Source: Candidatus Komeilibacteria bacterium
GTDB taxonomy: Bacteria; Patescibacteriota; Patescibacteriia; UBA1558; UBA10009
Assembly (NCBI GenBank): GCA_030688315.1
Contig: JAUYIT010000017.1
Span: forward strand, 2,845-66,844
Length of the DNA stretch: 64,000 bases
Reading direction: 5' to 3'
The notes beneath the pieces are model-generated. The model saw only the letters and a list, made by a program, of their open reading frames with translations. It was not told where the DNA came from and searched no databases. Shown in pieces: positions 3,971-25,593 of the stretch. Each line of letters opens with the position of its first letter. Within the stretch, counting starts at the first letter, position 1. The translations under genes were made by a program, and so were the position numbers.

Positions 3971-6385
3971 ATGATTATACTGATTAATCTGTTTTTTTAC
4001 AAGCCAGAACCGCTGTTTAAGCGCCCAACCGCGTTTGTCAAAAATTCTAAAATATCATATAATACAACCACTTATTTTGTCATTAACCCGCTTATGAATC
4101 AAAAAACGCTTTACTTGGTGGAAAAGATATTAAAAAACATTGTCATCTTTGGCAGTTTTTTGGTGGTGTTGCTGCCTATCGTGATTGTACCCGGCTCTTA
4201 CTTCCCTTACATCATTCAAAAAACCAACATTTTAAAGATTTTAATTGAGCTGATTTTTTTGGCCTATTTACCGCTGGCTTTATGGAAAGCAGAATACCGG
4301 CCCAAAAAATCTTTTATTTTATGGGCGGTGCTGGCTTTTGCCGGCATTATGATTTTAACCACCTTTACCAGCCAAAGCGTGTACCGAAGCTGGTGGGGCA
4401 ACTGGGAAAGAAGCTTTGGCACATTTAATTACCTCCATTATTTTGCTTGGTTTATCGCTTTGCTCGGTGTTTTTAAAGAAAAAAAATACTGGTATTATCT
4501 GCTTAATTTTTCTCTGATTGTTAGCGCCTTAATCGGGCTTTACGCCGTGGCTCAAAGAATGGATCTGGGCATTACCTTTGAAAGCGGTCTGCAACGGGTT
4601 AACGCTACCATGGGCAACGCTTCTTTTTTATCGGCCTACATGCTGATGCATGTTTTTATCGCCTTGCTGTTTATTACGGAAAAAGTTTCCTTAAAGTTAA
4701 AATTTTGGTATTGGTCGGTTTTTATCCTTGATTTTCTGGTTTTGCAGCTGACCGCCACCAGAGGCGGTTTGCTGGGTTTGGCAGGCGCCTTGGTTTTGTT
4801 TATTATTTTGGTGTTTACCCTTAAGTTGTGGGAAAAGAAAAGCGTCAAGATTTTGGTCGGCTTAACCTTGTTTGTATTTTTGATAGGCGGTTTGGCCATG
4901 GTTTTTAAGGAATCCCCGCTGATTAAAGGCAATTACTGGCTGAGGCGCTTAACCAGTTTTTCCATTAATGACGGCACGGTGCAAACTCGTCTGCGCACCT
5001 GGACTTGGGGTTTGCAGGGTTTTAGGGATAACTTTATTTTCGGCCTGGGGCCCGAAAATTACCACATCGCTTTTAACCAATATTTTGAGCCGGATTTTTA
5101 CCGCTATTCGGCTACGGAAATCTGGTTTGACCGGGCTCATAATAATTTAGTGGATATGGCGTCTACCATGGGCATTTTTGGCCTGCTTTCTTATTTAGGA
5201 ATTTTATGGGCGGTGTTTCACGCTCTGACCATGCTGTATCGTCAGCAGAAAATTTCCAAATTAGCGTTTGTGGTGATAATTTTATTGTTTTTTTCCTATA
5301 CCGTGCAAAACCTGGCGGTTTTTGACTCCTTAAATACCCTGATTATTTTTTATCTCTTGCTGGCTTATGTGGCTTTTCTTTACACCAGCAACAACGTCGG
5401 TCCGGTACAAGAAGGGGATTTGGCTGGCCGCGTCCGGATCAGCCCGCTAGTTAGTTTGCCGGTTTTGACGCTGTTATTTTTACTGTTGTTTTTTGCGGTT
5501 GATTTAAAGCAAATCAAGGAAAATCTTTACGTTTATAACGCTTACATTGCCGGCAAATTGGGCAATTACGCCGAATCAATGTATTGGTACGATAAAACCT
5601 ACAACGATGGCCTTCATAAAATTGACCCGGCTATTTTAAGGTCGTCCAGTATCGGCGAGTTAGTGGAATCAAACAAGGAAAACGCTTCCAAGGAATGGAT
5701 CCTGGAGGATTTAAATAAAGCCATTGATTGGATGGATAAAGCCATTGCCTTGGATCAGCGTAATATGTTTTTGTATTATTTGCAGGCCAAAAATTACGCT
5801 TTGGCGGCGGAACTTTCCGGCGATGCTAAATATTTGGACAAGGGGCTGGCTATGGCCGACAAGGCCCAGGAATTGCGGCCTGGCGAGATCCGTCCTTACT
5901 GGCTGAAAGCGCAAATTTATTTGTTTGGCAGTCAGCCCGAAAAGGCGTTAGAATATCTTAACCAGGCCAACGAATTATATGACCGTTTGCCCGAAACCTA
6001 TTTTTATCTGTCGGTGGTTTACCAGAGTATGGGTAATGAAGAAAAATACCGGGAAGTGGTGGAAGAAATGCTTGACCGCGGTTTTTCGTTTTTTTCCGCC
6101 GATTTGGTTAAAAAAACCATTCCTTATTACGACGCCCAAGGCGACATTAAGCGGCTGATTCAGCTTTATGATGAATTAACCCGGCTGGAATCCAATAACG
6201 CCAATTATTGGCAGGATTATGTTGATTTGCTGGTGCAGGATAAGCAGTACGACCGGGCGTTGCTGGTATTGCAGAAGGCCGCGGAAAAAATTCCGGCCTT
6301 TTCCAGCCGCGCTTATACTCGTTATCAGGAAATTATAAAATTAAAAGACGGTTTGGAAGGCGCTGCCACTTCAACCAATCAATAA
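3971..6385 (+). CDS. O-antigen ligase/polymerase-like (Wzy_C) polytopic membrane protein with C-terminal TPR repeats
   Basis: 804 aa, about 12 TM helices, TATRGGLLGL loop typical of the Wzy_C/O-antigen ligase family, and a C-terminal TPR-like helical repeat region. Confidence 0.6.
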   Translation: MIILINLFFYKPEPLFKRPTAFVKNSKISYNTTTYFVINPLMNQKTLYLVEKILKNIVIFGSFLVVLLPIVIVPGSYFPYIIQKTNILKILIELIFLAYLPLALWKAEYRPKKSFILWAVLAFAGIMILTTFTSQSVYRSWWGNWERSFGTFNYLHYFAWFIALLGVFKEKKYWYYLLNFSLIVSALIGLYAVAQRMDLGITFESGLQRVNATMGNASFLSAYMLMHVFIALLFITEKVSLKLKFWYWSVFILDFLVLQLTATRGGLLGLAGALVLFIILVFTLKLWEKKSVKILVGLTLFVFLIGGLAMVFKESPLIKGNYWLRRLTSFSINDGTVQTRLRTWTWGLQGFRDNFIFGLGPENYHIAFNQYFEPDFYRYSATEIWFDRAHNNLVDMASTMGIFGLLSYLGILWAVFHALTMLYRQQKISKLAFVVIILLFFSYTVQNLAVFDSLNTLIIFYLLLAYVAFLYTSNNVGPVQEGDLAGRVRISPLVSLPVLTLLFLLLFFAVDLKQIKENLYVYNAYIAGKLGNYAESMYWYDKTYNDGLHKIDPAILRSSSIGELVESNKENASKEWILEDLNKAIDWMDKAIALDQRNMFLYYLQAKNYALAAELSGDAKYLDKGLAMADKAQELRPGEIRPYWLKAQIYLFGSQPEKALEYLNQANELYDRLPETYFYLSVVYQSMGNEEKYREVVEEMLDRGFSFFSADLVKKTIPYYDAQGDIKRLIQLYDELTRLESNNANYWQDYVDLLVQDKQYDRALLVLQKAAEKIPAFSSRAYTRYQEIIKLKDGLEGAATSTNQ

Positions 6386-9729: not shown

Positions 9730-10449
9730 ATGAAATTAAGCGTTATTATTCCGGCTTTTAATGAAGAAGAACGCCTGCCAGACACTCTGAACCAAGTTTT
9801 TGGCTATTTGGATAAATCCGGCTTAAGCGGCGAAACGGAGGTACTGGTGATTGATGACGGTAGCATTGACAATACCGCCGCAATCGTCCGGGCACGACAG
9901 GAAAAAAATCTAAAGCTGATCGGCACCGGTCGCAACTTTGGCAAAGGAGCCGCCGTTAGAACCGGAGTACGGCAAGCGCGGGGAGAGGCCGTACTATTTT
10001 TAGATGCCGACTATTCCACCGCTTTGGAGGAACTGGAAAAATTTTTGCCAAAACTGGAGCAGGGTTATGATTTGGTGATCGGCTCGCGCGCCATTCGCGG
10101 TGCTAGGGTTTTAGTCAGCCAGAACCTGATTAAGATTTGGCTGGGCAAAACCGGCAATTTGGGCGTCCGTCTAATTTTGGGTTTAAAGGTTAATGATAGC
10201 CAGTGCGGCTTCAAGCTTTTTTCAACAAAAGCGAAAAAAATATTTCAGGAACAAACCATTAACGGCTGGGGCTTTGATTTTGAACTTTTATATTTAGCTA
10301 AAAAAAGGGGACTGATTGTATTGGAATTGCCCGTTACCTGGGTTAATAACAAGCAATCCAAAGTAAAACCCTTGGATTATTTTAAAACTTTAGGGGAGTT
10401 ATTTAAAATCAAATTTAATGACTTAAGAGGAATTTATGAAAAAAAATAA
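9730..10449 (+). CDS. GT2 polyprenyl-phosphate sugar synthase (dolichyl/undecaprenyl-phosphate mannose/glucose synthase, GtrB/DPM1-like)
   Basis: 239 aa with VIIPAFNEEERL...VIDDGSIDNT...LFLDADYS DxD motifs typical of DPM1/GtrB-type GT2. It follows gtrA. Confidence 0.75.
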   Translation: MKLSVIIPAFNEEERLPDTLNQVFGYLDKSGLSGETEVLVIDDGSIDNTAAIVRARQEKNLKLIGTGRNFGKGAAVRTGVRQARGEAVLFLDADYSTALEELEKFLPKLEQGYDLVIGSRAIRGARVLVSQNLIKIWLGKTGNLGVRLILGLKVNDSQCGFKLFSTKAKKIFQEQTINGWGFDFELLYLAKKRGLIVLELPVTWVNNKQSKVKPLDYFKTLGELFKIKFNDLRGIYEKK

Positions 10450-11470
10450 AGCTAACTTAAACGGACGGAAAAATATTCTGGTTACCGGCGGCGCCGGTTT
10501 TATCGGCAGCCGTTTGTGCGAAGAACTGGTCAGGGAAAATAACGTCATCTGCCTGGATAGCTTAATCACCTCCAGTTTGGAAAATATCCGTTTTTTACTG
10601 CAAAATCCCAATTTTGAATTTATCAAGCATGATTTAAACGAACCGCTTGATTTAAAAACCTTGCCCGAATTAAAAAAGTTCGAGGTGGAAGTGTTCGGGA
10701 TTCAGGAAATTTACAATTTGGCTTGCCCCACTTCAGCCAAAAAATTTGATGAACTAACGGTGCAAACCGCGCTGGCTAATTCCATCCTGATTAAAAATGT
10801 TTTGGATTTGGCTTTGGCCAATGATGCCAAGCTGGTGCACGCCTCCTCGGCCGTGGTTTACGGACCGCGCGAAAGCAATAGTTATGTTAATGAAGCTTTT
10901 CACGGTTCGGTCAAAATTGACGGACCGCGCAGCTGTTACGATGAAGGCAAGCGTTTTGCCGAAGCCATGATCGCCACTTACCGGAACTTCTACAAAAAAC
11001 CTTTTAAGGTTGCCAGAATTTTTAGAACTTACGGACCGCGTTTGGCCTTAAACGACGGGCAGATGATTTCCGATTTTATTTTTAACGCCTTGGATAACAA
11101 AGATCTGGTTATTTACGGCACCGAAAATTTTTCCACCTCTTTATGTTATGTGGACGATGTGGTGGACGGCCTGATTAAGCTGATGAAGAGCGACATGGCC
11201 CAGTCGGTAAATTTGGGCAGCAACGTGGATGTGTTGCTTAAGGATGTGGCGCAAAAAATAATTGACCTGACCGGCTCCACTTCCCAAATCATTTATCAGG
11301 GCGCTTTGGAATTTATCACCCCTCTGCCGTTGCCGGATATTGATTTGGCTAAAGTCAGTTTGGGTTGGTATCCGTTGACCACTTTGGATAAGGGCCTGGA
11401 AAAAACTTTGGAATATACCCGGGCCAACAAGAGAGTTTTGAATGAGCTAGCGAATGGTGAATCTTTGTAA
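10436..11470 (+). CDS. NAD-dependent epimerase/dehydratase, UDP-glucuronate decarboxylase (UXS)-like, divergent
   Basis: 344 aa with TGGAGFIGS, a YxxxK motif and a CYDEGKRFAEAM signature close to the UXS family hallmark (YDEGKR). Confidence 0.55.
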   Translation: MKKNKANLNGRKNILVTGGAGFIGSRLCEELVRENNVICLDSLITSSLENIRFLLQNPNFEFIKHDLNEPLDLKTLPELKKFEVEVFGIQEIYNLACPTSAKKFDELTVQTALANSILIKNVLDLALANDAKLVHASSAVVYGPRESNSYVNEAFHGSVKIDGPRSCYDEGKRFAEAMIATYRNFYKKPFKVARIFRTYGPRLALNDGQMISDFIFNALDNKDLVIYGTENFSTSLCYVDDVVDGLIKLMKSDMAQSVNLGSNVDVLLKDVAQKIIDLTGSTSQIIYQGALEFITPLPLPDIDLAKVSLGWYPLTTLDKGLEKTLEYTRANKRVLNELANGESL

Positions 11471-11507: not shown

Positions 11508-12668
11508 ATGGGTAAATACATTTTTACATCCGAATCGGTGACCGAAGGCCACCCTGATAAGGTCTGTGACCAGATTTCGGACGCTATTTTAGACGAGTTG
11601 CTAAGGCATGACCCTGAATCACGCGCCGGCATTGAGTGTATTGCTACCACGGGTTTAGTAGTTGTGGCCGGTGAAATTAGAACCAATCATTATGTTGATA
11701 TTGCCGGTATTGCCCGCCAAACCATTAAAGACATTGGTTATAACGGAGCTTCGGCCGGTTTTTCGGCGGAGGATTGCGGGGTGATGGTGGCGATTGATGA
11801 ACAGTCGGCTGATATTGCCCAGGGCGTGGATAAGGGCAAAGGCAAATACAAAGAGCAGGGCGCCGGTGATCAGGGTTTAATGTTCGGATTTGCTTGCCGT
11901 GAAACCAAAGAATTGATGCCGTTGCCGATTATGCTGGCTCATAAAATGGCTAGGCGGTTGGCGGCTGTCCGCAAAAGCGGATTATTAAAATATTTGCGCC
12001 CCGACGGTAAAACCGAAATCGCGGTGGAGTATGAAAATGGCAAGCCCCGCCGGGTTGATACGATTGTAATTGCCGCCCAGCATAACGAAACGGTTTCGGA
12101 AAAAAAAGTTGAACGCGATATTATCAATAAAGTTGTTAAACCGGTTTGCGGCAAATATCTTGATGCCAAAACCAAATTCTTTATTAATGCTACCGGCAAG
12201 TTTATTAAAGGCGGCCCGGTGGCTGATACCGGTTTGACCGGGCGTAAAATTATCGTGGATACTTACGGCGGTTATAGCGCTCACGGCGGCGGTTGTTTTA
12301 GCGGCAAGGATCCTTCAAAAGTTGACCGAAGCGCTTGCTACATGGCCCGCTACGTGGCAAAAAATATTGTGGCCGCGGGTTTAGCCGATAAGTGCGAAGT
12401 TCAGCTGGCTTACGTGATTGGGCGCGCTGAACCCGTTAGCGTGCTGGTTAAGTCATTTGGCACTGGCAAATTGCCGGACGAAAATTTGGAAAAAATAGTC
12501 AGACAGGTTTTTCCTCTAAAACCGGCCGAGATAATCAAACACTTAAAATTGAAGCGGCCGATTTACAAAAAAACCGCGGCTTACGGCCACTTTGGCCGAA
12601 CCGAACCGGAGTTTACCTGGGAAAAAACAGATCTAGTAAGCAAGTTGAAGAAGTATTTGGTTAAATAA
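11508..12668 (+). CDS. metK: S-adenosylmethionine synthetase
   Basis: 386 aa. [24 protein letters not shown] and [16 protein letters not shown] are canonical MetK motifs. Confidence 0.95.
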
Positions 12669-12670
12669 AT

Positions 12671-13585
12671 ATGTCCAAAATTTTGGTCACTGGAGGAGCC
12701 GGGTTTATCGGCTCCCATTTGGTTGACCGCCTAATCGCCAAAAATCATCAGGTGGCTGTGGTTGATAATTTATCCACCGGCAAGCTTAGGTTTGTTAACC
12801 GCCGGGCCAAATTTTACAAGGTCAGCGTGACCAGTCCCAAGTTGAAACAGGTTTTTGGCAAATTTAAACCGGAAATTGTTTTTCATTTGGCCGCCCAAAA
12901 AAGCGTGCCTTTTTCGGTTAATGATCCGCTGGCCGACGCCACTACCAACATCTGGGGTTCCTTAAAAACCATTGAGCAGTCAATTAGGGTGGGGGTAAAA
13001 AAGTTTGTGTTAATTTCCACCGGCGGGGCCATTTACGGTGCCACCAAAATCATGCCGACTCCGGAAATTGTGGCGCCTAAACCTGATTCGCCTTACGGCC
13101 TTAGCAAACTGACCGTGGAAAATTATTTGCTGAATTATTACCAACCGTTGCGCAAGCTTAATTTTGTCAGTTTGCGGCTAGCTAACGTGTTTGGCCCCAG
13201 GCAGGATCCGGACGGTGAAGCCGGCGTGGTGGCGATTTTTGTCAAAAATTTACTGGCCAATAAACAGTGTTTTATCACGGGCAACGGCAAACAAACCAGG
13301 GATTTTGTGTTTGTGGATGATGTGGTTGAGGCCTGCTTAAAATCCATCAGAGCGGGGCAGGGGATTTACAACATCGGCACGGGCAAGGAAACTTCCATCA
13401 AAGTTTTGTATCATTTAATTGCCGGCCTTATTTCCAAGCGCGAACCCAAATTCGTGCCGCCGCGGCCGGGCGATGTTTTCCGCAGTGTTTTAAAAAACGC
13501 TTTAGCCAAACGCGACCTGGGCTGGCAGGCGCAAGTTGAGCTGGTGGACGGTCTTAAAAAAACCATTAAGTATTTTAAAGCATGA
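12671..13585 (+). CDS. UDP-glucose 4-epimerase-like NAD-dependent epimerase
   Basis: 304 aa with TGGAGFIGSHLVDRL, a SPYGLSK YxxxK motif and a GalE-like short extended-SDR fold. Confidence 0.65.
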   Translation: MSKILVTGGAGFIGSHLVDRLIAKNHQVAVVDNLSTGKLRFVNRRAKFYKVSVTSPKLKQVFGKFKPEIVFHLAAQKSVPFSVNDPLADATTNIWGSLKTIEQSIRVGVKKFVLISTGGAIYGATKIMPTPEIVAPKPDSPYGLSKLTVENYLLNYYQPLRKLNFVSLRLANVFGPRQDPDGEAGVVAIFVKNLLANKQCFITGNGKQTRDFVFVDDVVEACLKSIRAGQGIYNIGTGKETSIKVLYHLIAGLISKREPKFVPPRPGDVFRSVLKNALAKRDLGWQAQVELVDGLKKTIKYFKA

Positions 13586-15132
13586 AGATTTTAGTTACCG
13601 GCGCCGCCGGTTTTATCGGTTCTCATTTGGTTGATTTTTTATTGAATCAAGGTCACGAAGTAATTGGCCTGGATAATTTTTTTAGCGGCAAAAAGGAAAA
13701 CATCGCCCACAATCTTAGCAACTCCAAATTTAAATTCATCAAACATGACGTGACCCTGCCGTTAAAGATAAAGTTCGGCCACCTCGACAGAATATACAAT
13801 CTGGCCTGCCCGGCTTCGCCCGTGCAGTACCAGTTTGATCCGGTTAAAACCCTTAACACCAGCGTTTTAGGCACGCAAAATATGCTGGAATTGGCGCGTT
13901 TAACCGGCGCTCGGTTGTTGCAGGCCTCAACTTCCGAAGTTTACGGCGATCCGTTGGAGCATCCGCAAACGGAATCTTATTGGGGCAACGTGGATCCGCT
14001 GGGCGAGCGGGCGTGTTACGATGAAGGTAAGCGCGCGGCCGAGGCCTTATGCAAGGATTATCACAAACAATATGGAGTTGACGCGCGAATAATCAGAATC
14101 TTTAACGTCTATGGGCCGCGCATGATGTTCAATGACGGCCGCGTTGTTTCCAACTTTTTATTGCAAGCTCTGCTTGATGAAGATATTACGGTTCACGGCA
14201 CGGGCGGGCAAACCAGAAGTTTTTGCTATGTGGAAGATTTTATTAAAGCAATGACCGGCTGGATGGAACACGTTACCGATTATCTGCCGGTTAACATCGG
14301 TAATCCCGAGGAGCAGTCCATGCTGACATTGGCTGAAACTATTAAGCAGGCCACCCATTCCAAAAGCCGGCTGGTTTTTATTCCTTACCAACAGCTTGCC
14401 GGCCGGCAGGGCGATGTTAAGCAAAGACGAGCTGATATTTCCAGAATAAAAAAAGAATTAAATTGGCAGCCGACCACGGTTTTTGCCGAGGGGCTTAAAA
14501 AAACCATCGCGGATTTTAAACAGCGCCTCAACAATAAACCTCACATTTTGGTTTTTGCCCCGGCCTATCTGCCGTTTAAAGGCCCGGCCGAAGAAACAGT
14601 GGCGGAAATAATTAAAAGATTGCCGGGCTATGAATTTGATATTATCACGGCCAAGCTCGATAAAAAGTTAAAGGATCAAGAGCATTACGATAACGTCCAT
14701 ATTTACCGTTTGGGAGCGGGCTCTGCCGTTGATAAATATCTGCTGCCCTTAAGAGCGGTCAGCTTGGCCAAAAAACTTCATCGCCAAAATAGTTACCAGC
14801 TTTCTTGGGCGATTATGGCTAGCTATGGCGCGGTCGCGGCTTCCTTGTTTTCTTCATTTAACAAGCGCGTGCCGTTTTTACTTAGCGTTTATGAAGGCGA
14901 TTTGACTGCTAAAATGACCAGCCGAGGCAGGTTGTTAAGCCCGGTCTATAAAATGATTTTCAGCAAGGCGCATCGCTGGCAGTTAATCGCCAAGATGAAC
15001 CAACAACAGCGCGCCTGGCTGGAAAACGAACGCCGCGTTCAGGTGGTGCAATTTGAAAAAGATTTTGATTTGCTGGCCAAAAGAACCAAGGAAATGTTTC
15101 AGGAGCTGGAAATTTTATCCGCCAGAATTTAA
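13582..15132 (+). CDS. UDP-glucuronate decarboxylase (UXS) fused in frame to an N-terminal GT4 Rossmann half-domain
   Basis: Residues 1-315 are a canonical UXS (YNLACPASPVQY, ACYDEGKRAAEAL). Residues from about 320 to 516 are homologous to the N-terminal half of the next gene (PGYEFDIITAKL vs PGYEFDLICARL; SWAIMASYGAVAAS vs VWAIMASYGGFAAL) and lack the C-terminal catalytic domain. Confidence 0.7.
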   Translation: MKILVTGAAGFIGSHLVDFLLNQGHEVIGLDNFFSGKKENIAHNLSNSKFKFIKHDVTLPLKIKFGHLDRIYNLACPASPVQYQFDPVKTLNTSVLGTQNMLELARLTGARLLQASTSEVYGDPLEHPQTESYWGNVDPLGERACYDEGKRAAEALCKDYHKQYGVDARIIRIFNVYGPRMMFNDGRVVSNFLLQALLDEDITVHGTGGQTRSFCYVEDFIKAMTGWMEHVTDYLPVNIGNPEEQSMLTLAETIKQATHSKSRLVFIPYQQLAGRQGDVKQRRADISRIKKELNWQPTTVFAEGLKKTIADFKQRLNNKPHILVFAPAYLPFKGPAEETVAEIIKRLPGYEFDIITAKLDKKLKDQEHYDNVHIYRLGAGSAVDKYLLPLRAVSLAKKLHRQNSYQLSWAIMASYGAVAASLFSSFNKRVPFLLSVYEGDLTAKMTSRGRLLSPVYKMIFSKAHRWQLIAKMNQQQRAWLENERRVQVVQFEKDFDLLAKRTKEMFQELEILSARI

Positions 15133-15144
15133 ATTTATTTTGCC

Positions 15145-16284
15145 ATGAAACGAATTTTGATTTTTGCCACTGCCTATTACCCTCACGTGGGGGGAGCGGA
15201 AGTGGCGGTTAAGGAAATTACCGACCGTTTGCCGGGTTATGAATTTGATTTGATCTGCGCCCGATTGGAAAAAAATTTGCCTCAACAGGAAAAAATCGGC
15301 CAGGTCAATGTTTTTAGAGTGGGCTGGGGCCTGCCTCAAATTGATAAAATTTATTTGGCTGTTTGCGGCTATTGGCTGGGCTTAAAACTTCAGCGCCAAA
15401 AAAAATATGATTTGGTTTGGGCGATTATGGCCAGTTATGGCGGTTTTGCCGCCTTGGCCTTTAAACTTAAAACAGGGGTCAAATATTTACTGACTTTACA
15501 GGAGGGCGATTTTAATTTAAAAACCAAGCGCAAAATTTGGCTGGTCAAAAAAAAATTCGCCAACATTTTCAGCCAAGCCGACGGCTTGCAAGCCATCAGC
15601 AATTATTTATTGAACTGGGGTACAGCCATGGGTTTTAAGGGCCTAGCCGAAGTGGTGCCCAACGGCGTGGACGTAAAAAATTTTACCAAAGTTTATGAGC
15701 AGTCGGAATTAAAAAAAGTTAGAGATAGTTGGGGTTTTGATCGGTCAGCGATCATTTTAGTCAGCGCCTCCCGCTTGGTATTAAAAAACGGCCTAGCTGA
15801 CCTGATTAAGGCCCTGCCGTTGCTTCCGGAAAATTTTTGTCTGGTGTTGATCGGTGAAGGCCGGTTAGAAAAAAATTTACGTCAATTGGCCGATAATTTA
15901 GGATTATCTTCACGAATTTATTTTGCCGGTTATCATGATCATCAGGAACTGCCGCGCTTGCTGGCCGCCGCCGATATATTTATTAGGCCATCGTTAAGCG
16001 AGGGCTTGGGCAACGCATTTTTGGAAGCGATGGCTACGCGTTTGCCCACCATCGGAACTTTGGTTGGCGGCATCCCGGATTTTTTGACGGATGGCCAAAC
16101 CGGATTGGTTTGCGAACCGGGTAATCCGCAAAGCATCAGCCAAGCGATTGTTAAAGCGTCCAAATTGTCTGTTCAGGAAAAACAAGCGCTTCATCAAAAC
16201 GCCATGGCGTTGATTGAAAAAAAATACAATTGGGAGTATATTGCTGGTAGAATGGATGCTATTTTTAAGGGTTTAACCGCTTAA
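15145..16284 (+). CDS. GT4 glycosyltransferase
   Basis: 379 aa. The C-terminal EGLGNAFLEAMATRLPTIGTLVGG E-x7-E motif marks a GT4/GT-B retaining fold. Confidence 0.8.
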   Translation: MKRILIFATAYYPHVGGAEVAVKEITDRLPGYEFDLICARLEKNLPQQEKIGQVNVFRVGWGLPQIDKIYLAVCGYWLGLKLQRQKKYDLVWAIMASYGGFAALAFKLKTGVKYLLTLQEGDFNLKTKRKIWLVKKKFANIFSQADGLQAISNYLLNWGTAMGFKGLAEVVPNGVDVKNFTKVYEQSELKKVRDSWGFDRSAIILVSASRLVLKNGLADLIKALPLLPENFCLVLIGEGRLEKNLRQLADNLGLSSRIYFAGYHDHQELPRLLAAADIFIRPSLSEGLGNAFLEAMATRLPTIGTLVGGIPDFLTDGQTGLVCEPGNPQSISQAIVKASKLSVQEKQALHQNAMALIEKKYNWEYIAGRMDAIFKGLTA

Positions 16285-16298
16285 TTTTAATTTATATT

Positions 16299-17588
16299 AT
16301 GAAGATTACTATTGTTGGCACGGGTTATGTGGGTTTGGTTTCGGCCGTTGGTTTGGCCGAACTGGGGCACCGGGTTTTTTGCGTTGATACCGATCCTCAA
16401 AAAATTGAAATTTTAAAAAGCGGTCGGGCAACCTTTTATGAACCGGGTTTGGATAAGCTTTTAAAAAAGAATTTAGCCAATCGTCGTTTAAGCTTTACCG
16501 TTAGTTTAGCGCAAGTTATTGATCAGTCTGAAATTATTTTTATCTGCGTGGGCACGCCGCCCCAGCCCGACGGCAGTGCCGATTTAACTTACGTTAAACA
16601 GGTGGCAGCCAGCATTCAAACTTTATCCAAGCAGGGCAAAATAGTGGTTACCAAAAGCACCGTGCCCATCGGCACCGGCGCCATGCTGGAGCAGATTTTA
16701 AATAAAAAACCCGGCCGGGTTTTTGAAGCCGTTTCCTGTCCGGAATTTTTGCGTGAAGGCCAGGCCGTTTATGATTTTTTTCATCCGGATCGAATCGTAG
16801 TGGGCGCCGATAAGCAGTCAGTCGGCTTTAAGGTAATAAATTTATTTAGCGCGGTTAAAACCCATAAAATGGTCACCAGTCGTGAAACCGCTGAACTCAT
16901 CAAATACGCGGCCAACGCCTTTTTGGCCACCAAGATTTCCTTTATCAACGAAATCAGCAATGTCTGCGAAAAAACCGGCGCCGACGTGGAAGAAGTAGCC
17001 AAAGGTATGGGTCTGGATAAACGTATTAATCCATATTTTTTAAAAGCGGGTATCGGCTATGGCGGCAGTTGTTTTCCTAAAGACGTGCGAGCTCTCCGTC
17101 AGTTATCCGGCGGTAATGGTTACAACTTCCGTTTGTTAAAGGCGGTTATTGAAGTAAATAACAAACAGCGTCAGTTGTTTTTTGAAAAAATCAAAAAAGT
17201 TTTGGGTTCGCTGGAAGGCAAAAAAATCGGGGTTTTGGGCTTGGCGTTTAAAGGCAACACCGATGACGTACGGGAATCGGCCGCCGTTGATTTGATTAAA
17301 AAGCTGGTTAAAGCCAAAGCCAAGGTCAGCTGTTTTGATCCGCAAGCCGTGGCTAACGCCCGTTTGGTGTTAAACGGCCGGATCCGTTATTGCGCTAACG
17401 CTTATGAAACCATGGAGCAGGCCGACGCCCTAATTATCGCCACTGAATGGCCGCAGTTTGCCAAATTGGATTTTAAAAAAGTCAAAAAATTATTACGCCA
17501 GCCGATTATTTTTGATGGCAAGAACCTATTAAATCATCAACTAATTAAAAAAGCCGGCTTTTCATATTATTCCGTCGGCCGCAGCTAA
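16299..17588 (+). CDS. ugd: UDP-glucose 6-dehydrogenase
   Basis: 429 aa with GTGYVGLVSAVGLAELGH N-terminal NAD motif and the catalytic GGSCFPKDV cysteine motif. Confidence 0.9.
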   Translation: MKITIVGTGYVGLVSAVGLAELGHRVFCVDTDPQKIEILKSGRATFYEPGLDKLLKKNLANRRLSFTVSLAQVIDQSEIIFICVGTPPQPDGSADLTYVKQVAASIQTLSKQGKIVVTKSTVPIGTGAMLEQILNKKPGRVFEAVSCPEFLREGQAVYDFFHPDRIVVGADKQSVGFKVINLFSAVKTHKMVTSRETAELIKYAANAFLATKISFINEISNVCEKTGADVEEVAKGMGLDKRINPYFLKAGIGYGGSCFPKDVRALRQLSGGNGYNFRLLKAVIEVNNKQRQLFFEKIKKVLGSLEGKKIGVLGLAFKGNTDDVRESAAVDLIKKLVKAKAKVSCFDPQAVANARLVLNGRIRYCANAYETMEQADALIIATEWPQFAKLDFKKVKKLLRQPIIFDGKNLLNHQLIKKAGFSYYSVGRS

Positions 17589-17592
17589 AAAT

Positions 17593-17967
17593 ATGAATAA
17601 TCAAACAATGTCAAAATTTGAGGATATTATTATTCCTGGCCCCGTTAAGGCAGAAACGGAGCATTTGCCTGTGCTGGAAATAACCCCGGCCATGCGTGAG
17701 ACGTTTACCGATCTTCGAAATAAATTTTATGAGATGAGTAGCGGATACCAACTGCAAAATGATTTAAGTTTTAGCGGACGATGTTCTGATTTTAAACATA
17801 AGATATACGGCGAGTTCGGCATGGACGCTATGACCAATTGCTATTTGAGCCATATTTTTGGCAGTACCGTGCCCGAAGAACTGCTTAACCGTTATGATTT
17901 TGAAGGCGGATGTTCAGTTGAATCCTTTATCAATCAGGAATACGAGAGGTTTAAAAACAAGTTATAA
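17593..17967 (+). CDS. hypothetical soluble protein with four Cys
   Basis: 124 aa with no TM helix, tightly packed between ugd and a GT2 gene. No recognisable family. Confidence 0.35.
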   Translation: MNNQTMSKFEDIIIPGPVKAETEHLPVLEITPAMRETFTDLRNKFYEMSSGYQLQNDLSFSGRCSDFKHKIYGEFGMDAMTNCYLSHIFGSTVPEELLNRYDFEGGCSVESFINQEYERFKNKL

Positions 17968-18629
17968 TGAATAATGTTTTTATTATCATTCCGTGTTATA
18001 ACGAAGCCGAACATTTGGCTAAAGTGATTGAATCGGTTAAACCGTACGGCCGGGTAGTAGTGGTTGACGACGGTTCAACTGACAATTCTTTTCAAATTGC
18101 CGTAAGTAGCGGCACCCTGGTTTTAAAACATCTGGTCAACCGCGGCATGGGCGCGGCTTTGGAAACAGGGGACAGGCTTGCCCGTAGCCAGGGTGCCGAG
18201 ATTGTGGTTCATTTTGACGCCGACGGCCAGCATGTGGCCGAAGAAATCCCACTGTTGATTCAGCCGATAGTCAATAACGAGGCAGACGCGGTTTTGGGTT
18301 CCAGATTTTTAAAGCCCACCAGCGCCATACCGTTTTTTAAAAAGCATTTTATTTTAAAACCCGCTGTGTTTTTTCAGAATTCCATGTTGGGCGTTAAACT
18401 GACCGACGCGCACAACGGTTTTAGGGCCTTATCCTGTCATGCTTTGGAAAAAATCAGGATTACCCAAGACGGCATGGCCCATGCTACCGAAATTATCGAG
18501 CAGATTAAAACCAATAATTTAACTTATCAGGAAGTTCCGGTAACCGTTATTTACCACGAATTCGGCCAAGGATTTTTATCGGGCTTGAAGATTTTAAAGG
18601 ATTTGATTTTTGGTAAAATAAATAAATAA
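17967..18629 (+). CDS. GT2 glycosyltransferase (small, DPM1/DPG-synthase-like)
   Basis: 220 aa with IIIPCYNEAEHL...VVVVDDGSTDNS...HFDADGQH motifs. Confidence 0.75.
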   Translation: MNNVFIIIPCYNEAEHLAKVIESVKPYGRVVVVDDGSTDNSFQIAVSSGTLVLKHLVNRGMGAALETGDRLARSQGAEIVVHFDADGQHVAEEIPLLIQPIVNNEADAVLGSRFLKPTSAIPFFKKHFILKPAVFFQNSMLGVKLTDAHNGFRALSCHALEKIRITQDGMAHATEIIEQIKTNNLTYQEVPVTVIYHEFGQGFLSGLKILKDLIFGKINK

Positions 18630-18631
18630 CT

Positions 18632-18988
18632 ATGGTTTATCTGCCTTTACAAATTATTGTTACCATCTTTGTGGTGTTAGTTGTGTTTCGGCTGACCAAA
18701 AAATACAAAGACAATATTTTAAAAACTTCCGAACTGGTGGGCTGGCTAATGATTTGGACCGTTGTTTTAGTCGTCTTTTGGCTCCCTCAAACCACTTCTT
18801 ATCTGGCAACTTTACTGGGCATCGGCCGTGGCGTGGATTTAGCCGTTTATTCGGCCGTACTGATGATTTTTTACCTCATTTTCCGGCTGTATCTTAAACT
18901 GGATAAACAGCAGAAAGAAATTACCAAAATCGTCCGCCATCTGGCGTTATCGGAAACAAACGAGGACAAGGAACAAAAGTCAAATTAA
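18632..18988 (+). CDS. DUF2304-like small membrane protein (GT2-associated)
   Basis: 118 aa with 3-4 TM helices and a conserved-looking LGIGRGVDLAVY segment. This family commonly follows small GT2 genes. Confidence 0.45.
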   Translation: MVYLPLQIIVTIFVVLVVFRLTKKYKDNILKTSELVGWLMIWTVVLVVFWLPQTTSYLATLLGIGRGVDLAVYSAVLMIFYLIFRLYLKLDKQQKEITKIVRHLALSETNEDKEQKSN

Positions 18989-21269: not shown

Positions 21270-22450
21270 AATTTTGCCTAATAACTAATTTATATCCGCC
21301 TTACGTGCGAGGGGGTGCCGAGCGGGTAGTGGAATTACTGGTTCAGGGCTTAAGGGCTAGGGGCGAAGTTTTATTGATTACCACTCAGCCCGATGATATT
21401 TTAGACGATGCCACCGAAGAGGGTTTTGAAATTTACCGCATCAATCCCTTAAACAGCTATTATCTGTTGGATGAACAGCCGCGCTCGGTTTGGGATAAAA
21501 TCAAATGGCATTGGAGTGATTTTTTTAATCCCTGGGTGCAAAAAGAAATTTATCACTTGTTAAAAAAACGCCGGGTGGATGTGGTTTTAACCCATAACTT
21601 AAAGGGTCTAAGCTTAGGTCTGCCTAAAGTAATTAGAAAACTGGGTTTGCCGCACATCCATACTTTGCATGATTATCAGTTGTTGGAGCCGCACGGTTCC
21701 ATGTTTAGGTCCGGCCAAAACGTGGATTTAAAAGGAATGGCTTATGTTTTATACCGCTGGCTATCCCGTTATTTTTTTAAAAATCCTGGAGTGGTTATTT
21801 CACCTTCGCGCTTTGCTCTGGATTTGCATCTTAAGTACGGTTTTTTTAAAAAATCCAAGACAATGGTTTTGCCTAACCCCGCGGCCGGCCATGATCAGTT
21901 AAAAATAAAGCCGCGATTAACTTCTGATAAATTACGCTTGTTGTATCTTGGTCAGTTGGAACCGGCCAAAGGCGTGTTATGGCTGGCAGAGAATTTTAGC
22001 CAGTGGGATGATGCGCGGGTGGAGCTGACCATAGCCGGTGAAGGCAGCCAGCTGGCGGAAATAAAAAAAATGGCCGGTCCGCGAATTAAGGTTTTAGGCA
22101 AAGTAACTAGAGAAAATTTAGCCGAACTGTTTGCCCGGTGCGATCTGTTGGTTTTACCATCAATTTGGCAGGAAAATTCGCCTTTGGTAATTTACGAGGC
22201 CTATCAGCACGGCTTGCCTGTTTTAGTTGCTGACGCGGGCGGAGCCAAAGAATTGGTTAAGGAAGGTGAAACCGGCTGGGTTTTTAAAGCTAACAATCAA
22301 GCCGATTTGCTAGCCAAGCTCAAACTGGCTTTGGCTAAAAAAGATTCGCTGTCAGCCATGGGCCAGGCCGGCCGCGCTTATGTTCAGCAGTTTTTTTTGA
22401 ATAATTATTTGACTAAGTTAATCGCCTTATGCGAGAATTTGAAGAAATAA
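21266..22450 (+). CDS. GT4 glycosyltransferase
   Basis: 394 aa with ENSPLVIYEAYQHGLPVLVADAGG E-x7-E motif. Its start overlaps the upstream stop by 4 nt. Confidence 0.8.
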   Translation: MKFCLITNLYPPYVRGGAERVVELLVQGLRARGEVLLITTQPDDILDDATEEGFEIYRINPLNSYYLLDEQPRSVWDKIKWHWSDFFNPWVQKEIYHLLKKRRVDVVLTHNLKGLSLGLPKVIRKLGLPHIHTLHDYQLLEPHGSMFRSGQNVDLKGMAYVLYRWLSRYFFKNPGVVISPSRFALDLHLKYGFFKKSKTMVLPNPAAGHDQLKIKPRLTSDKLRLLYLGQLEPAKGVLWLAENFSQWDDARVELTIAGEGSQLAEIKKMAGPRIKVLGKVTRENLAELFARCDLLVLPSIWQENSPLVIYEAYQHGLPVLVADAGGAKELVKEGETGWVFKANNQADLLAKLKLALAKKDSLSAMGQAGRAYVQQFFLNNYLTKLIALCENLKK

Positions 22451-23322
22451 TCGAGTTTATAAAAACCAAGTCACAAAATTCCCAGGGAGTTTTTTTGTAT
22501 TTACCCAACTTGACCGATTTTCAAAAACAGGAAATGGAGTTTCACGATGCCATTCATCAGGATGAGATAGAGGTTCATCAATTGAACGCCTTAAGAAACG
22601 TTTATTATCATAATTATTTCAAGAAGTTTTTATATCGCTTACCCAAAAGTTCGGTAATTTTGGAAGTTGGCTCCGGCAGCGGTTATGATTTGTTTTCGGT
22701 TTTGGAACAGGGTTATAATCTGATTGCTTCCGATATCAGCCCGGCTTCCGTTGGGTTTATTAAAAAACAGGTTGACGTTAGGTTCAGTTTATTAGCCGAT
22801 AAAATAATATATTTGGTGGCGGACGGACAAAATCTGCCTTTACCTGATAATTCGGTTGACGCGGTTTTTCTGGTGGCTTGTTTGCATCATTTTGAAAATC
22901 AGCACTCGGCTTTAACCGAAATCGCCCGCGTGCTTAAACCGGGCGGACAGATTATTTTGGCCATGGAGCCGTCTAGATTCATGATGTGGTTTACCAAGTT
23001 ATTCAGCTCCGCCAAAGGATTACGGATCCATGACGGCCATTCCGAAGCTGATGAAACCCATCCCGGTTACGGTAGAAGCGATTGGGAAAAAATAATCGCT
23101 GATAATCCTTTATCAATGGTCAGGTTAAAAAGGGTCTGGCTGTTACAAGGTTTTTTGCATTATGGTCTTGAAGCCCTGTTTAGAATTTTTAAATTAAAAA
23201 AGAGGATTAAACTTCCTCTCTTTATTGAATGGCCATTATTAATAATTGACGAGCTTCTCTTAAAAATCCCCATCATCAATCAACTCAATTGGCATTGGAT
23301 AGCGGTTATTTCTCGTATTTAA
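22429..23322 (+). CDS. class I SAM-dependent methyltransferase
   Basis: 297 aa with ILEVGSGSGYDL (motif I), LKPGGQIILAM (post-II) and a Rossmann MTase fold. Confidence 0.75.
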   Translation: MREFEEIIEFIKTKSQNSQGVFLYLPNLTDFQKQEMEFHDAIHQDEIEVHQLNALRNVYYHNYFKKFLYRLPKSSVILEVGSGSGYDLFSVLEQGYNLIASDISPASVGFIKKQVDVRFSLLADKIIYLVADGQNLPLPDNSVDAVFLVACLHHFENQHSALTEIARVLKPGGQIILAMEPSRFMMWFTKLFSSAKGLRIHDGHSEADETHPGYGRSDWEKIIADNPLSMVRLKRVWLLQGFLHYGLEALFRIFKLKKRIKLPLFIEWPLLIIDELLLKIPIINQLNWHWIAVISRI

Positions 23323-25429
23323 AAATGTAGTTTTTACCGTCAATGGCCTGCCAGTCATCGGCGGTTTCTTGTTGTTCGGCAATAACATCAGAGGCGTTAA
23401 GCCAGTAATCATTGATCACAAAATAAACATCGTTAACGCCGGTTAAAAAGCGGACCGTGCCAATTACTTCAGCCACCGGCGTTTTGGCGTAAGCCAGTTC
23501 CTCGTACAGGCCATAGAGGCGGCCGCCGGTGGGAACGGGGTAAAAAAAGAGGTTGTTGTAATAGTATTTAAAGCCCAGTTCTTTGAGGGCGGCCGCCGAA
23601 ACCGGCTGGGCAGCCAGCACCACATACGGCCGGTTGCGTTGGATAGTTTCAATAAAGTTGACGGTTTTAACATCAGTTAAAGACGTGGAGTAACCATGAT
23701 CTTCGGTAATTTTATCCACCCGCGGATACGAAAGATACCAGGAAAAAGTCATGGCCATGGCCAACAGAGTTAACGATAAAATAATCACCGGCCGCGACTG
23801 TTCATTAAGTTTTTTAAAAAACAGGTATAGCACAATCAAAATAAAAGGGGAGAGCAGATACAAACTGATTTCCAGAACACGATTAGGATAATTTATCTGT
23901 TCGTACGAAACCAAAGAGAAAAAGGAAACCATAGCTTTAAGTAGCAGGTAGTTGCCGGCTACCATTAAAAAACCTAAAAAGTAGGCAAAGTATTTTTTAA
24001 ACTGCTGATGGCGCCAGACAAAAATCAATCCCAAGGTTGATAGGATAAATAACAGTAAAACGATGTTTTTGCCGTAGGTATAAATCAAATCAGCCAAAGA
24101 AATAAAGGGCCTAAAATAAAAATCAGGCGGGTGGCTAAACACCAGTTCGCTCAACTTGGCCAGCCAGTTGGTTTGCAAGCCCACCTTAAGTTCGGATAAT
24201 GTCAGTGAGTTGACTATAAAAGCGACCGGCAGGGCAAGGATTCCCAAAATGGCAATTTCCCATAAAATGGACTGGTGCAGAATTTTAGGCAAATTGCTTG
24301 TCCCCGTCAGGGGGAATTTTTGCTGGCGGTGCTGGTAAAAAGCCATAATCACAAAAAAGAAAAATACCGGAATGCCGGCCAAAGGATGAATGGTTAAGGC
24401 CATCAACACTAATAAGCCCAGCGGCCATAACGATACCTTAGGATGATTGATGTAATAAAGCGACAGTAAAATCGCCAGCAAACAGAATAAATTGGCCGTG
24501 GCTTGAGGGGTGGTTACAATCAAGCCCGCAAAGGGGAATAACAATAAGCTTAAGGCGGTTAAAACCACGTTTTGCGGAATGGTTTTAAAATTATCTTTAA
24601 AAGCGTAATAAATGGTGGCGGGCAAATAAATCGCGGCCATAATTGGGATCAGTAGTTTATCCAGCCAGTCAACGGAAACCAACAGCAAACGGTGCAAAAA
24701 AATAATCAAACTGTATTGGCCGATGTAATAAAAGGGTTTAGGCAGTAACGTGCCGTCGCGCAGAATCAAATCCAAATTTAAACGGTGGATAAACGGGTCG
24801 TAATCAAAGCCCAGGCGGTAAATTATTAAAGCCACGCTAAAGCTGATTAAAGCATGCAGGCACACTAGCCAAAGAGTGCTGGCTGTTTTAGCCAGTTTAA
24901 CCAGACAGAACAACAAAAATGTGGCAAAAAAATATAAAAAGAAGATTTTAGCATCAATTACTTCCCACGGACTGCGAATCGCCCGGTCAGTTTGCGCGGA
25001 TTGCAATAAGTAAAAAATAAGACCCACAAACAATAAATAGGTCAGGGCCAAAAAAATCACCTTAACCCGCGGCAGTTCAAATTTAAAGTTAATATTGATG
25101 ATCAATGGGTGTTTTTTAACACCCAAGAGGGCAAATAGGGCTACGCCCGTTAAAGCGGCCGCATAGGCCTGGTAATCCAATTGCCATAAATAAAAACAGG
25201 CCGTGCCCACCAATGAGGCAATCACCACGCTGAACAACAAGCCGTAAATAAATTTGCAAACCCAGGAATTTTTTAAAAACAGCCAGTTGCCAATGGCCAA
25301 AGCGGCCAACAATAAAAACAACGCTCCGCTTAAAGTGTTCAACCATAGCCAAGTCCAGCTGGCATTGTTGACCACGCTTAAAATCAGCAAGGTCAAAATT
25401 AGTTTCCAATGGTTAAAGGTAAAAAACAT
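23306..25429 (-). CDS. large polytopic membrane protein (about 16 TM helices), putative GT-C-like glycosyltransferase/polymerase
   Basis: 707 aa and almost entirely hydrophobic helices. It is divergently paired with a GT39/83-like GT-C gene. No confident family assignment. Confidence 0.45.
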   Translation of the reverse strand: MFFTFNHWKLILTLLILSVVNNASWTWLWLNTLSGALFLLLAALAIGNWLFLKNSWVCKFIYGLLFSVVIASLVGTACFYLWQLDYQAYAAALTGVALFALLGVKKHPLIININFKFELPRVKVIFLALTYLLFVGLIFYLLQSAQTDRAIRSPWEVIDAKIFFLYFFATFLLFCLVKLAKTASTLWLVCLHALISFSVALIIYRLGFDYDPFIHRLNLDLILRDGTLLPKPFYYIGQYSLIIFLHRLLLVSVDWLDKLLIPIMAAIYLPATIYYAFKDNFKTIPQNVVLTALSLLLFPFAGLIVTTPQATANLFCLLAILLSLYYINHPKVSLWPLGLLVLMALTIHPLAGIPVFFFFVIMAFYQHRQQKFPLTGTSNLPKILHQSILWEIAILGILALPVAFIVNSLTLSELKVGLQTNWLAKLSELVFSHPPDFYFRPFISLADLIYTYGKNIVLLLFILSTLGLIFVWRHQQFKKYFAYFLGFLMVAGNYLLLKAMVSFFSLVSYEQINYPNRVLEISLYLLSPFILIVLYLFFKKLNEQSRPVIILSLTLLAMAMTFSWYLSYPRVDKITEDHGYSTSLTDVKTVNFIETIQRNRPYVVLAAQPVSAAALKELGFKYYYNNLFFYPVPTGGRLYGLYEELAYAKTPVAEVIGTVRFLTGVNDVYFVINDYWLNASDVIAEQQETADDWQAIDGKNYIFKYEK

Positions 25430-25506: not shown

Positions 25507-25530
25507 TTGTATAACTTTATAAGCGACATA

Positions 25531-25579
25531 GAGCGAGTGAAGCAAAAAAGTAAACTTTTTTGCTTCCGAGCCGAGGAGC
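25531..25579. repeat. GC-rich hairpin element flanked by GAGCGAG / CGAGCCGAG motifs (copy B of a REP-like family)
   Basis: GAGCGAGt-[gaagcaaaaaag taaa cttttttgcttc]-CGAGCCGAGGAGC. The 12-bp stem is perfect. Confidence 0.55.
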
Positions 25580-25593
25580 TTATATGTACTCAT

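Follow-up and report, generated by a model that had tools for sequence, protein, structure and literature searches.

The window, a stretch of 64,000 nucleotides (nt) from a Candidatus Komeilibacteria bacterium (GenBank assembly GCA_030688315.1, contig JAUYIT010000017.1, positions 2,845 to 66,844 of the forward strand), contains a gene in which a UDP-glucuronate decarboxylase (UDP-xylose synthase, UXS), an enzyme of the short-chain dehydrogenase/reductase (SDR) type, is joined to a C-terminal extension, here called EXT. The extension is derived from the N-terminal domain (A-domain) of a family 4 glycosyltransferase (GT4). This fusion gene, UXS-EXT, is followed by a complete GT4 gene and then by a gene for UDP-glucose 6-dehydrogenase (UGD). 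The features are given below in window positions, with the evidence for each in brackets; residues are those of the 516-amino-acid (aa) product.

13582..15132, + strand: whole fusion gene, UXS plus GT4-derived A-domain (EXT), 516 aa (list of open reading frames, ORFs; identical product in a Logan assembly; 63 loci)
13582..14529, + strand: UDP-glucuronate decarboxylase (UDP-xylose synthase) domain, residues 1-316 (match to human UXS1, motifs, Pfam PF16363/PF01370)
14530..14541, + strand: four-residue linker NNKP, residues 317-320 (direct reading of the DNA)
14542..15129, + strand: EXT, a non-catalytic GT4 A-domain with a seven-stranded N-Rossmann fold plus terminal helix, residues 321-516 (BLASTP, hhalign, AlphaFold2 (AF2), Foldseek, dN/dS)
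14581..14592, + strand: beta1-alpha1 loop G334-P335-A336-E337, with GP instead of the parent GG (column counts)
15064..15126, + strand: conserved terminal helix, residues 495-515, DLLAKRTKEMFQELEILSARI (AF2 models, match to 6LDQ)
15145..16284, + strand: partner gene, a complete GT4 of 379 aa from the same N-domain subfamily (Pfam PF00534, PF13692, PF13439; motif counts)
16299..17588, + strand: UGD, which makes UDP-glucuronate (UDP-GlcA), the substrate of UXS, in the same operon (NCBIfam TIGR03026, 471 bits, above cutoff; TuaD-like, 538 bits)

A preliminary description of the window had proposed that the 516-aa ORF is a UXS joined in frame, via NNKP, to a segment resembling the neighbouring GT4. 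The ORF was present at 13582-15132 and the alignments agreed with this layout, and all three peptide matches quoted in that description were found inside the BLASTP alignment of EXT with the GT4. The observation was confirmed far beyond chance because of the UXS match, the 44% identity to the GT4 and the absent C-domain, which are described below. An independent Logan assembly (run SRR13727534) encoded an identical 516-aa product, with the gene order unchanged. It is very probable that UXS-EXT is a bona fide conserved fusion with a pseudo-glycosyltransferase A-domain. In public databases, the NCBI record MDP2586455.1 covers only the last 177 aa (window 14602-15132, with an internal GTG start) under the name 'glycosyltransferase', and the full 516-aa product is on record only via the Logan assembly. 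The current public annotation mis-describes the gene, and a count of glycosyltransferases by automatic pipelines would take EXT for an extra GT4.

The N-terminal half was compared with enzymes of known class. Residues 1-319 aligned end to end with human UXS1 (PDB 4gll/2b69) with E=5e-103 and 348 bits, in line with the earlier assignment of a canonical UDP-glucuronate decarboxylase up to about residue 315. The matches to other classes were weaker, namely epimerases at 1e-39, ArnA at 1e-17 (PDB 1z7e, E=2e-16) and UDP-apiose/xylose synthase (UAXS) at 2e-16. Because the match to human UXS1 was far above the matches to epimerases, ArnA and UAXS, the N-terminal half is a genuine UXS. Pfam assigned residues 1-310 to SDR families (PF16363/PF01370), and the segments GAAGFIGSH, ASTSEVYGDP, RACYDEGKRAAE and NDGRVVSNF were identical or conserved in the alignment with 4gll. 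The NAD-binding GxxGxxG motif and the catalytic Ser/Thr-Glu and Tyr-x3-Lys motifs (STSEVYG, CYDEGKR) were all present. The N-terminal half is predicted to turn UDP-GlcA into UDP-xylose (UDP-Xyl), and the presence of UGD in the operon is consistent with such an activity.

In the C-terminal half, residues 321-470 aligned with residues 3-152 of the partner GT4 at 44% identity (67/151, E=4e-35, BLASTP), and a profile-profile comparison with hhalign covered EXT positions 3-188 and GT4 positions 1-186 (E=5e-46, probability 100%). EXT contained no counterpart to GT4 residues ~187-355 or to the E-x7-E motif and gave no Glycos_transf_1 Pfam match, so the preliminary description was right that the catalytic C-terminal half is gone. 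EXT also gave no match to the Alg14 Pfam family, and its nearest relatives were GT4 proteins. When EXT was modelled alone with AF2 on the extension family, the model had a pLDDT of 84 and a pTM of 0.82 and showed seven beta-strands alternating with helices, with a long helix as the last element. The arrangement of EXT was the same in the full-length AF2 model, where the linker region was occupied by a helix (residues 301-317) followed by a strand (residues 321-325). The top match of EXT in a Foldseek search of the PDB was 6LDQ (E=8e-8, TM 0.67, target-normalised, sequence identity ~19%), and the subsequent matches were the N-domains of the Thermosynechococcus sucrose-phosphate synthase (TeSPS, 6KIH), MshA (3c48), an archaeal glycogen synthase and BshA.

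EXT has lost invariant motifs of the parent family. The second glycine of the GG loop was present in 62 of 62 neighbour GT4s, whereas EXT has proline in 41 of 60 sequences, leucine in 7 and lysine in 3. Likewise, the Q and G of the QEGD motif after beta6, a position at which typical GT4s have an active-site residue, were found in 62/62 members of the neighbour GT4 family and varied across EXT. Near-invariant motifs that were kept or gained in EXT are DKYLLP and, in part by construction of the locus set, ASYGA, both placed in the AF2 model at the starts of helices that follow beta-strands. Both EXT (pI 9.76, net charge +11) and the N-domain of the GT4 (pI 9.6) are strongly basic. EXT cannot be a glycosyltransferase because its donor-binding C-domain has been excised and the parent active-site motifs are lost; it is a non-catalytic GT4 A-domain able to fold autonomously.

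The end of EXT differs from what a simple truncation would leave. The last helix spanned residues 495-515 in the full-length AF2 model and 178-198 in the EXT-only model, and judging from these models it would correspond to the C-terminal helix that in GT-B proteins folds back against the N-domain. A helix-profile test gave a mean score for the real tails that was higher than in all 20 shuffles, by a small margin, with AKRTKEMFQEL aligned to akrMreiFnkL. An alternative hhalign alignment for the equivalence of the terminal helix was not significant. The equivalence is therefore based mainly on the fold, since the sequence support was weak. Because of the conserved long helix at its end, EXT is not a mere truncated half but a whole GT-B N-domain unit; the C-domain was cut out internally and the terminal helix was kept. 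The earlier wording 'truncated N-terminal half' was thus correct as to the derivation from a GT4 N-domain and imprecise as to the truncation, as judged from the AF2 models and the match to 6LDQ.

To survey the architecture, one genome per GTDB species was scanned, which gave 78 loci, essentially all in metagenome-assembled genomes of Patescibacteria and a few with other taxonomic labels. A search with the junction region found proteins spanning SDR and extension at 48-62% identity, together with a remoter set of SDR-plus-extension proteins of 480-487 aa. The species scan and the loci of the junction-search proteins were combined into a locus set of 63 non-redundant SDR-plus-extension ORFs of ~470-535 aa, representing 63 Patescibacteria loci in about 60 species. 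Compared with the nearest species (locus L007), the window protein was 68% identical in EXT and 78% in UXS, and the partner GT4 was 65% identical in the N-domain and 58% in the C-domain; EXT thus diverged at about the rate of the real GT4. In four locus pairs with unsaturated synonymous sites, dN/dS was 0.024, 0.067, 0.088 and 0.084 for EXT and 0.03-0.11 for the SDR half. A profile of the extension gave only 788 matches among 1.84 billion cluster representatives, and because of this low number the EXT subfamily must be considered narrow. No stand-alone EXT was found; the ~195-aa candidates P0128 and P0148 were contig-edge fragments with open upstream frames.

Only two of the loci were disrupted, by a stop codon (L002/L009) and by a frameshift (L019). 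In L002/L009 (GCA_038065155.1, JBBTRO010000112.1, at ~5940 of L002), a single in-frame TAA was found in the UXS half where the orthologues have Glu (NPD*QR versus NPEEQS). The annotation splits this fusion into genes of 244 aa and 253 aa, and the stop reflects a genuine nonsense mutation or else an error in sequencing. In L019 (5152-5661), EXT was spread across two overlapping ORFs (505 aa and 169 aa), probably due to a frameshift or an assembly error.

The origin of EXT was addressed by a neighbour-joining analysis that comprised the 63 extension domains, the N-domains of 71 GT4s found at these loci and, as outgroup, two more GT4s. All extensions fell in one clan apart from the GT4 N-domains, with the split exact in 57% of the bootstraps and within two taxa in 85%. 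The identity of EXT to its own neighbour was 28%, compared to 29% to the GT4s of other genomes. A repeat scan of the window DNA showed that the paralogous segments of EXT and GT4 shared only motif-sized patches, at a spacing of 609-612 nt. A recent tandem duplication was ruled out by the repeat scan, the tree and the comparison of own and other neighbours. Instead, because the extensions form one clan and their own neighbours are no closer than GT4s from other genomes, the results fit a single ancient event in the same GT4 subfamily as the downstream gene, without repeated local duplications. When grouped by SDR identity to the window UXS, the fusions formed three tiers, with 58-78% in Komeilibacteria and Magasanikbacteria, 40-50% in UXS-like proteins and 25-32% in a distant group in which the SDR half can no longer be assigned to UXS. 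These tiers imply that the extension goes with more than one kind of nucleotide-sugar SDR. In the distant tier, a gene with a lamin-tail domain (LTD) precedes the fusion with a 4-nt overlap (L005 5282-6004, L085 3887-4636), and in L068 (2436-5549) the longest ORF runs through LTD, PKD, SDR and extension, with 1037 aa.

The partner GT4 starts 12 nt past the fusion ORF in the window and has Glyco_transf_4 and Glycos_transf_1 domains, with its E-x7-E motif, EGLGNAFLE, at residues 286-294 (nt 16000-16026). A comparison of orthologous loci, as the preliminary description had suggested, showed an SDR and EXT joined in 63 loci and the GT4 as a separate gene that is usually next. A full GT4 of the same subfamily was located at most 90 nt downstream of the fusion stop in 38/63 loci, many with overlaps of -4 or -1, and within 2 kb downstream in 14 more. 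Eleven of the 63 loci lacked a downstream GT4, and 8 of these reach a contig end within ~1.5 kb; in L002 the fusion is followed by a PMT_2 gene and the contig ends ~1 kb downstream, with no GT4. Other operon partners were not conserved, as UGD, the PpgS-like family 2 glycosyltransferase (GT2) and DUF2304 were found within +/-5 kb in only 1-2 of the 63 loci, and the GT4 is the sole consistently conserved neighbour of the fusion. A C-domain-only glycosyltransferase ORF was neither found in the window nor conserved across the loci.

Natural fusions connected the same components. The 876-aa protein P0122, identical in JGI and Logan assemblies, is a Rosetta-stone fusion that carries SDR, EXT and a full GT4 in one chain (L085 4633-7263, L086 653-3283), with two further GT4 genes and a UGD-like gene coming after it. 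In the 705-aa protein P0248, a GalE-like SDR is fused straight to a full GT4 of the subfamily of EXT, without the extension. A further recurrent Patescibacteria architecture was seen in proteins of 640-940 aa, which have this GT4 subfamily at the N-terminus followed by a further ~260-540 aa; examples are P0134, P0141, P0142 and others (L027 4995-6935, L034 4995-6914, L041 1690-3924 on the - strand, L028 1078-3789).

In addition to the genes above, the operon of the window encodes a PpgS-like polyprenyl-phosphate GT2 with DUF2304, further GT2 and GT4 genes, a methyltransferase, MetK, a PMT_2 glycosyltransferase of the GT-C type and a Wzy_C/TPR protein. From the combination of UGD, PpgS-like GT2, glycosyltransferases, PMT_2 and Wzy_C/TPR genes, the gene set indicates a surface-glycan pathway, on the basis of sequence assignments. 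Together, the PpgS-like GT2 with DUF2304 (17967-18988, +), the ArnT-like PMT_2 GT-C (25507-27234, +) and Wzy_C+TPR (3971-6385, +) supply the components of a lipid-carrier-dependent route for extracytoplasmic glycosylation within a genome of the Candidate Phyla Radiation (CPR). A second UXS-like SDR of 344 aa (10436-11470, +), with 36% identity to the UXS half and the CYDEGKR motif, lies in the same operon, and more extended SDRs were found in the window at 1615-2571 (-), 12671-13585 (GalE-like) and 32428-33429. MetK, an S-adenosylmethionine (SAM) synthetase (11508-12668, +), lies inside the operon, which is closed by a class I SAM methyltransferase (22429-23322, +); together these genes are a hint that the glycan product carries a methylated sugar. 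Where the operon ends, a 707-aa ORF in the reverse orientation (23306-25429, -) had no Pfam match. A promoter and terminator scan of the operon gave counts no different from those of shuffled sequences.

To explain why an enzyme would carry such an extension, we propose that EXT, itself non-catalytic, serves as an adaptor linking the synthesis of UDP-sugar to the partner GT4 and/or to the membrane; the chances of this are roughly even. The UXS half would use UDP-GlcA from the UGD encoded two genes downstream. By means of surfaces that stem from its GT4 N-domain ancestry, EXT would dock the sugar-nucleotide synthase on the translationally coupled GT4 and thereby imitate a GT4 contact made through the N-domain. 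It may also bring the enzyme to an anionic membrane or an acceptor where the partner GT4 works, and in either variant the UDP-sugar would be made at the place of its consumption. The close synteny, the existence of a Rosetta-stone fusion and the protein in which an SDR is joined directly to a GT4 favour docking on the partner, and binding to membrane or acceptor is kept open because of the high pI of EXT and the nearby polyprenyl-phosphate enzymes. The proposal builds on what was observed directly, that is the domain identities, the loss of the catalytic part, the conservation, the selection, the synteny and the Rosetta-stone fusion. A broader version is more tentative and, in our view, rather doubtful as it stands. 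Here EXT would represent an unrecognised class of pseudo-glycosyltransferase adaptor, a GT4 derivative that occurs in nature as the A-domain only and that heterodimerises with a paralogous full GT4 and hard-wires an SDR to the transferase, giving a minimal UDP-sugar-channelling glycosylation metabolon that is portable between SDRs and specific to Patescibacteria.

Several observations weigh against the adaptor proposal. Two loci (L018 and L041) with ample downstream sequence lacked an adjacent GT4 of the same subfamily, and in Magasanikbacteria a PMT_2 GT-C gene lies between the fusion and the GT4 (L010 5606-7267, L013 1329-2993, L002 6819-7826). The Rosetta-stone fusion was rare, as it formed one 50%-identity cluster in the best 150 matches. 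The best family match of the partner GT4 was TuaC, below the cutoff, and its donor might be UDP-GlcA and not UDP-Xyl. Since the SDR of the distant tier is not UXS, channelling of UDP-xylose cannot be the general function of EXT. The invariance of ASYGA in the locus set arises partly by construction because the peptide pattern W[AS][ILV][MF]ASYGA served to retrieve the loci. Finally, the physical interaction of EXT with the GT4, the membrane binding and the channelling are steps that we infer.

Other explanations were weighed against the same evidence. The preliminary description had offered a decaying fusion as one of two options, in which a recent tandem partial duplication of the 5' half of the GT4 was joined to a UXS that had lost its stop codon; a sequencing or assembly join would likewise leave EXT without a function. 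The NCBI record, which names just the last 177 aa as a separate 'glycosyltransferase', the in-frame TAA in the UXS half of L002/L009 and the apparently frameshifted EXT of L019 could be read in this way. However, an identical ORF in an independent assembly, the same architecture in 63 loci of different species, dN/dS values of 0.02-0.09 for EXT in the range of the enzyme half, and a divergence like that of the real GT4 make decay or an artefact hardly tenable. In addition, the extensions are monophyletic with their own neighbours no closer, the DNA similarity to the GT4 is limited to short motif patches, and a kept terminal helix needs an internal deletion, not a truncation. The other option in that description, a bona fide two-domain protein with a GT-B N-domain as an accessory module, was supported. 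A built-in docking module is preferred over a decaying fragment because EXT is conserved under strong selection and a matching GT4 is almost always next. The analogy with split Alg13/Alg14-type glycosyltransferases, also drawn in the preliminary description, fared less well. EXT would then be the acceptor-binding half of an enzyme that is completed in trans by a separate C-domain or by the C-domain of the neighbour GT4, and it is indeed a GT-B N-domain without a C-domain, as in the split GT-B enzymes Alg14/13 and EpsE/EpsF (PMC8993221). This is very improbable, as the window contained no stand-alone C-domain ORF, none was conserved across the loci, and the neighbouring GT4 is complete, having an N-domain and a terminal helix of its own. 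Moreover, EXT has its helix in cis while that of Alg13/14 comes from the C-domain subunit (PMC8993221), the parent-invariant GG and QEGD are lost, and the separately expressed A and B domains of TeSPS fail to reconstitute activity (PMC7264703).

Two functional alternatives concern EXT by itself. If EXT anchored the protein to membrane or acceptor without involvement of the GT4, it would keep the lipid or acceptor binding of a peripheral-membrane GT4 N-domain and would place the SDR by the polyprenyl-phosphate glycosylation enzymes, much as eukaryotic UXS1 is brought to the Golgi by its N-terminal membrane anchor; this explanation is compatible with an adaptor. The strongly basic character of EXT and its conserved cleft-face motifs (GPAE, DKYLLP, ASYGA) agree with an anchor, as do the PpgS-like polyprenyl-phosphate GT2, DUF2304, PMT_2 GT-C and Wzy_C in the operon and related loci and the PMT_2 gene directly after the fusion in Magasanikbacteria. 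We nevertheless consider it unlikely, since QEGD, at the position of typical GT4 active-site residues, is unconserved across EXT, and since an anchor alone leaves unexplained both the tight, often overlapping pairing with one GT4 subfamily and the existence of P0122. An allosteric sensor, in which binding of a UDP-sugar or an acceptor-like metabolite to EXT would regulate the fused SDR as a feedback control of the UDP-Xyl or UDP-GlcA pools, is still less probable. The four-residue linker suggests a fixed geometry between the domains, the loop motifs are conserved, and the isolated A-domain of sucrose-phosphate synthase is reported, in work cited in PMC7264703, to bind UDP and UDP-Glc. However, the Gly-to-Pro change in the beta1-alpha1 loop affects loop 1, which is stabilised by UDP in TeSPS (PMC7264703), and a sensor would leave the synteny with the GT4 unexplained.

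If EXT is an adaptor, UXS-EXT would be a clean bacterial case of sugar-nucleotide synthesis that is physically coupled to glycosyl transfer. If the metabolon exists, the reduced genomes of Patescibacteria may favour a physical coupling of SDR and glycosyltransferase. The gene also provides a handle on the cell-surface glycan pathways of CPR/Patescibacteria, which are almost unstudied. Our literature searches for an SDR/glycosyltransferase N-domain fusion or for a CPR UXS returned nothing relevant.

The combination of an SDR with a GT4 A-domain is a new architecture that is kin to multidomain sugar-nucleotide enzymes and to pseudo-glycosyltransferase partners. Among the former, ArnA is a bifunctional UDP-GlcA decarboxylase/formyltransferase, and here too a homologous, UDP-GlcA-decarboxylating SDR is fused to a second domain of the pathway. 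In ArnA, however, the partner is an active formyltransferase at the N-terminus, whereas the partner in UXS-EXT is C-terminal, non-catalytic and derived from a glycosyltransferase, and the SDR is of the UXS type and not of the ArnA type. Eukaryotic UXS1 is a type II Golgi membrane protein with an N-terminal transmembrane anchor. It shares with UXS-EXT an orthologous catalytic domain with an appended non-catalytic segment, and UXS1 is tethered near the xylosyltransferases that use its product, but the tether is an N-terminal transmembrane helix and not a C-terminal pseudo-glycosyltransferase domain.

Among the glycosyltransferases, Alg14/Alg13 and EpsE/EpsF resemble EXT in that the chain with the GT-B N-domain has no C-domain (PMC8993221). 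They differ in that they are MurG-like (GT28/GT1-type) and not GT4, and in that their activity needs a separate C-domain subunit; the C-terminal helix of Alg13/14 belongs to this subunit, docks on Alg14 and makes the contact in trans (PMC8993221). A further comparison is with GtfB and Asp1, two GT-B paralogues without catalytic activity that act as partners of the GT4 GtfA in streptococcal accessory-Sec glycosylation, where Asp1 binds anionic phospholipids (bioRxiv 10.1101/219105). As in EXT, the catalytic residues were lost and the fold was kept next to an active glycosyltransferase, in a subunit that serves substrate binding or partnering, and by analogy EXT may work like these inactive partners. 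In contrast to EXT, GtfB and Asp1 have both Rossmann domains and an extended beta-sheet domain (DUF1975) and are separate polypeptides (bioRxiv 10.1101/219105); with a single Rossmann fold and no additional domain, EXT falls outside the GtfB/Asp1 family. The closest structural parallel is 6LDQ, an engineered Thermosynechococcus sucrose-phosphate synthase, a GT4, consisting of residues 27-220 and 406-426 and described as the 'entire A-domain' (PMC7264703). This construct folds and crystallises alone and shows no activity, not even after the B-domain is added (PMC7264703). In both 6LDQ and EXT, the donor-binding domain has been removed and a GT4 N-Rossmann domain is joined directly to the C-terminal helix, but 6LDQ is a laboratory construct that is fused to nothing. 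In EXT, nature made what structural biologists engineered, a GT-B N-domain stabilised by the C-terminal helix, and has long retained it for a non-catalytic job.

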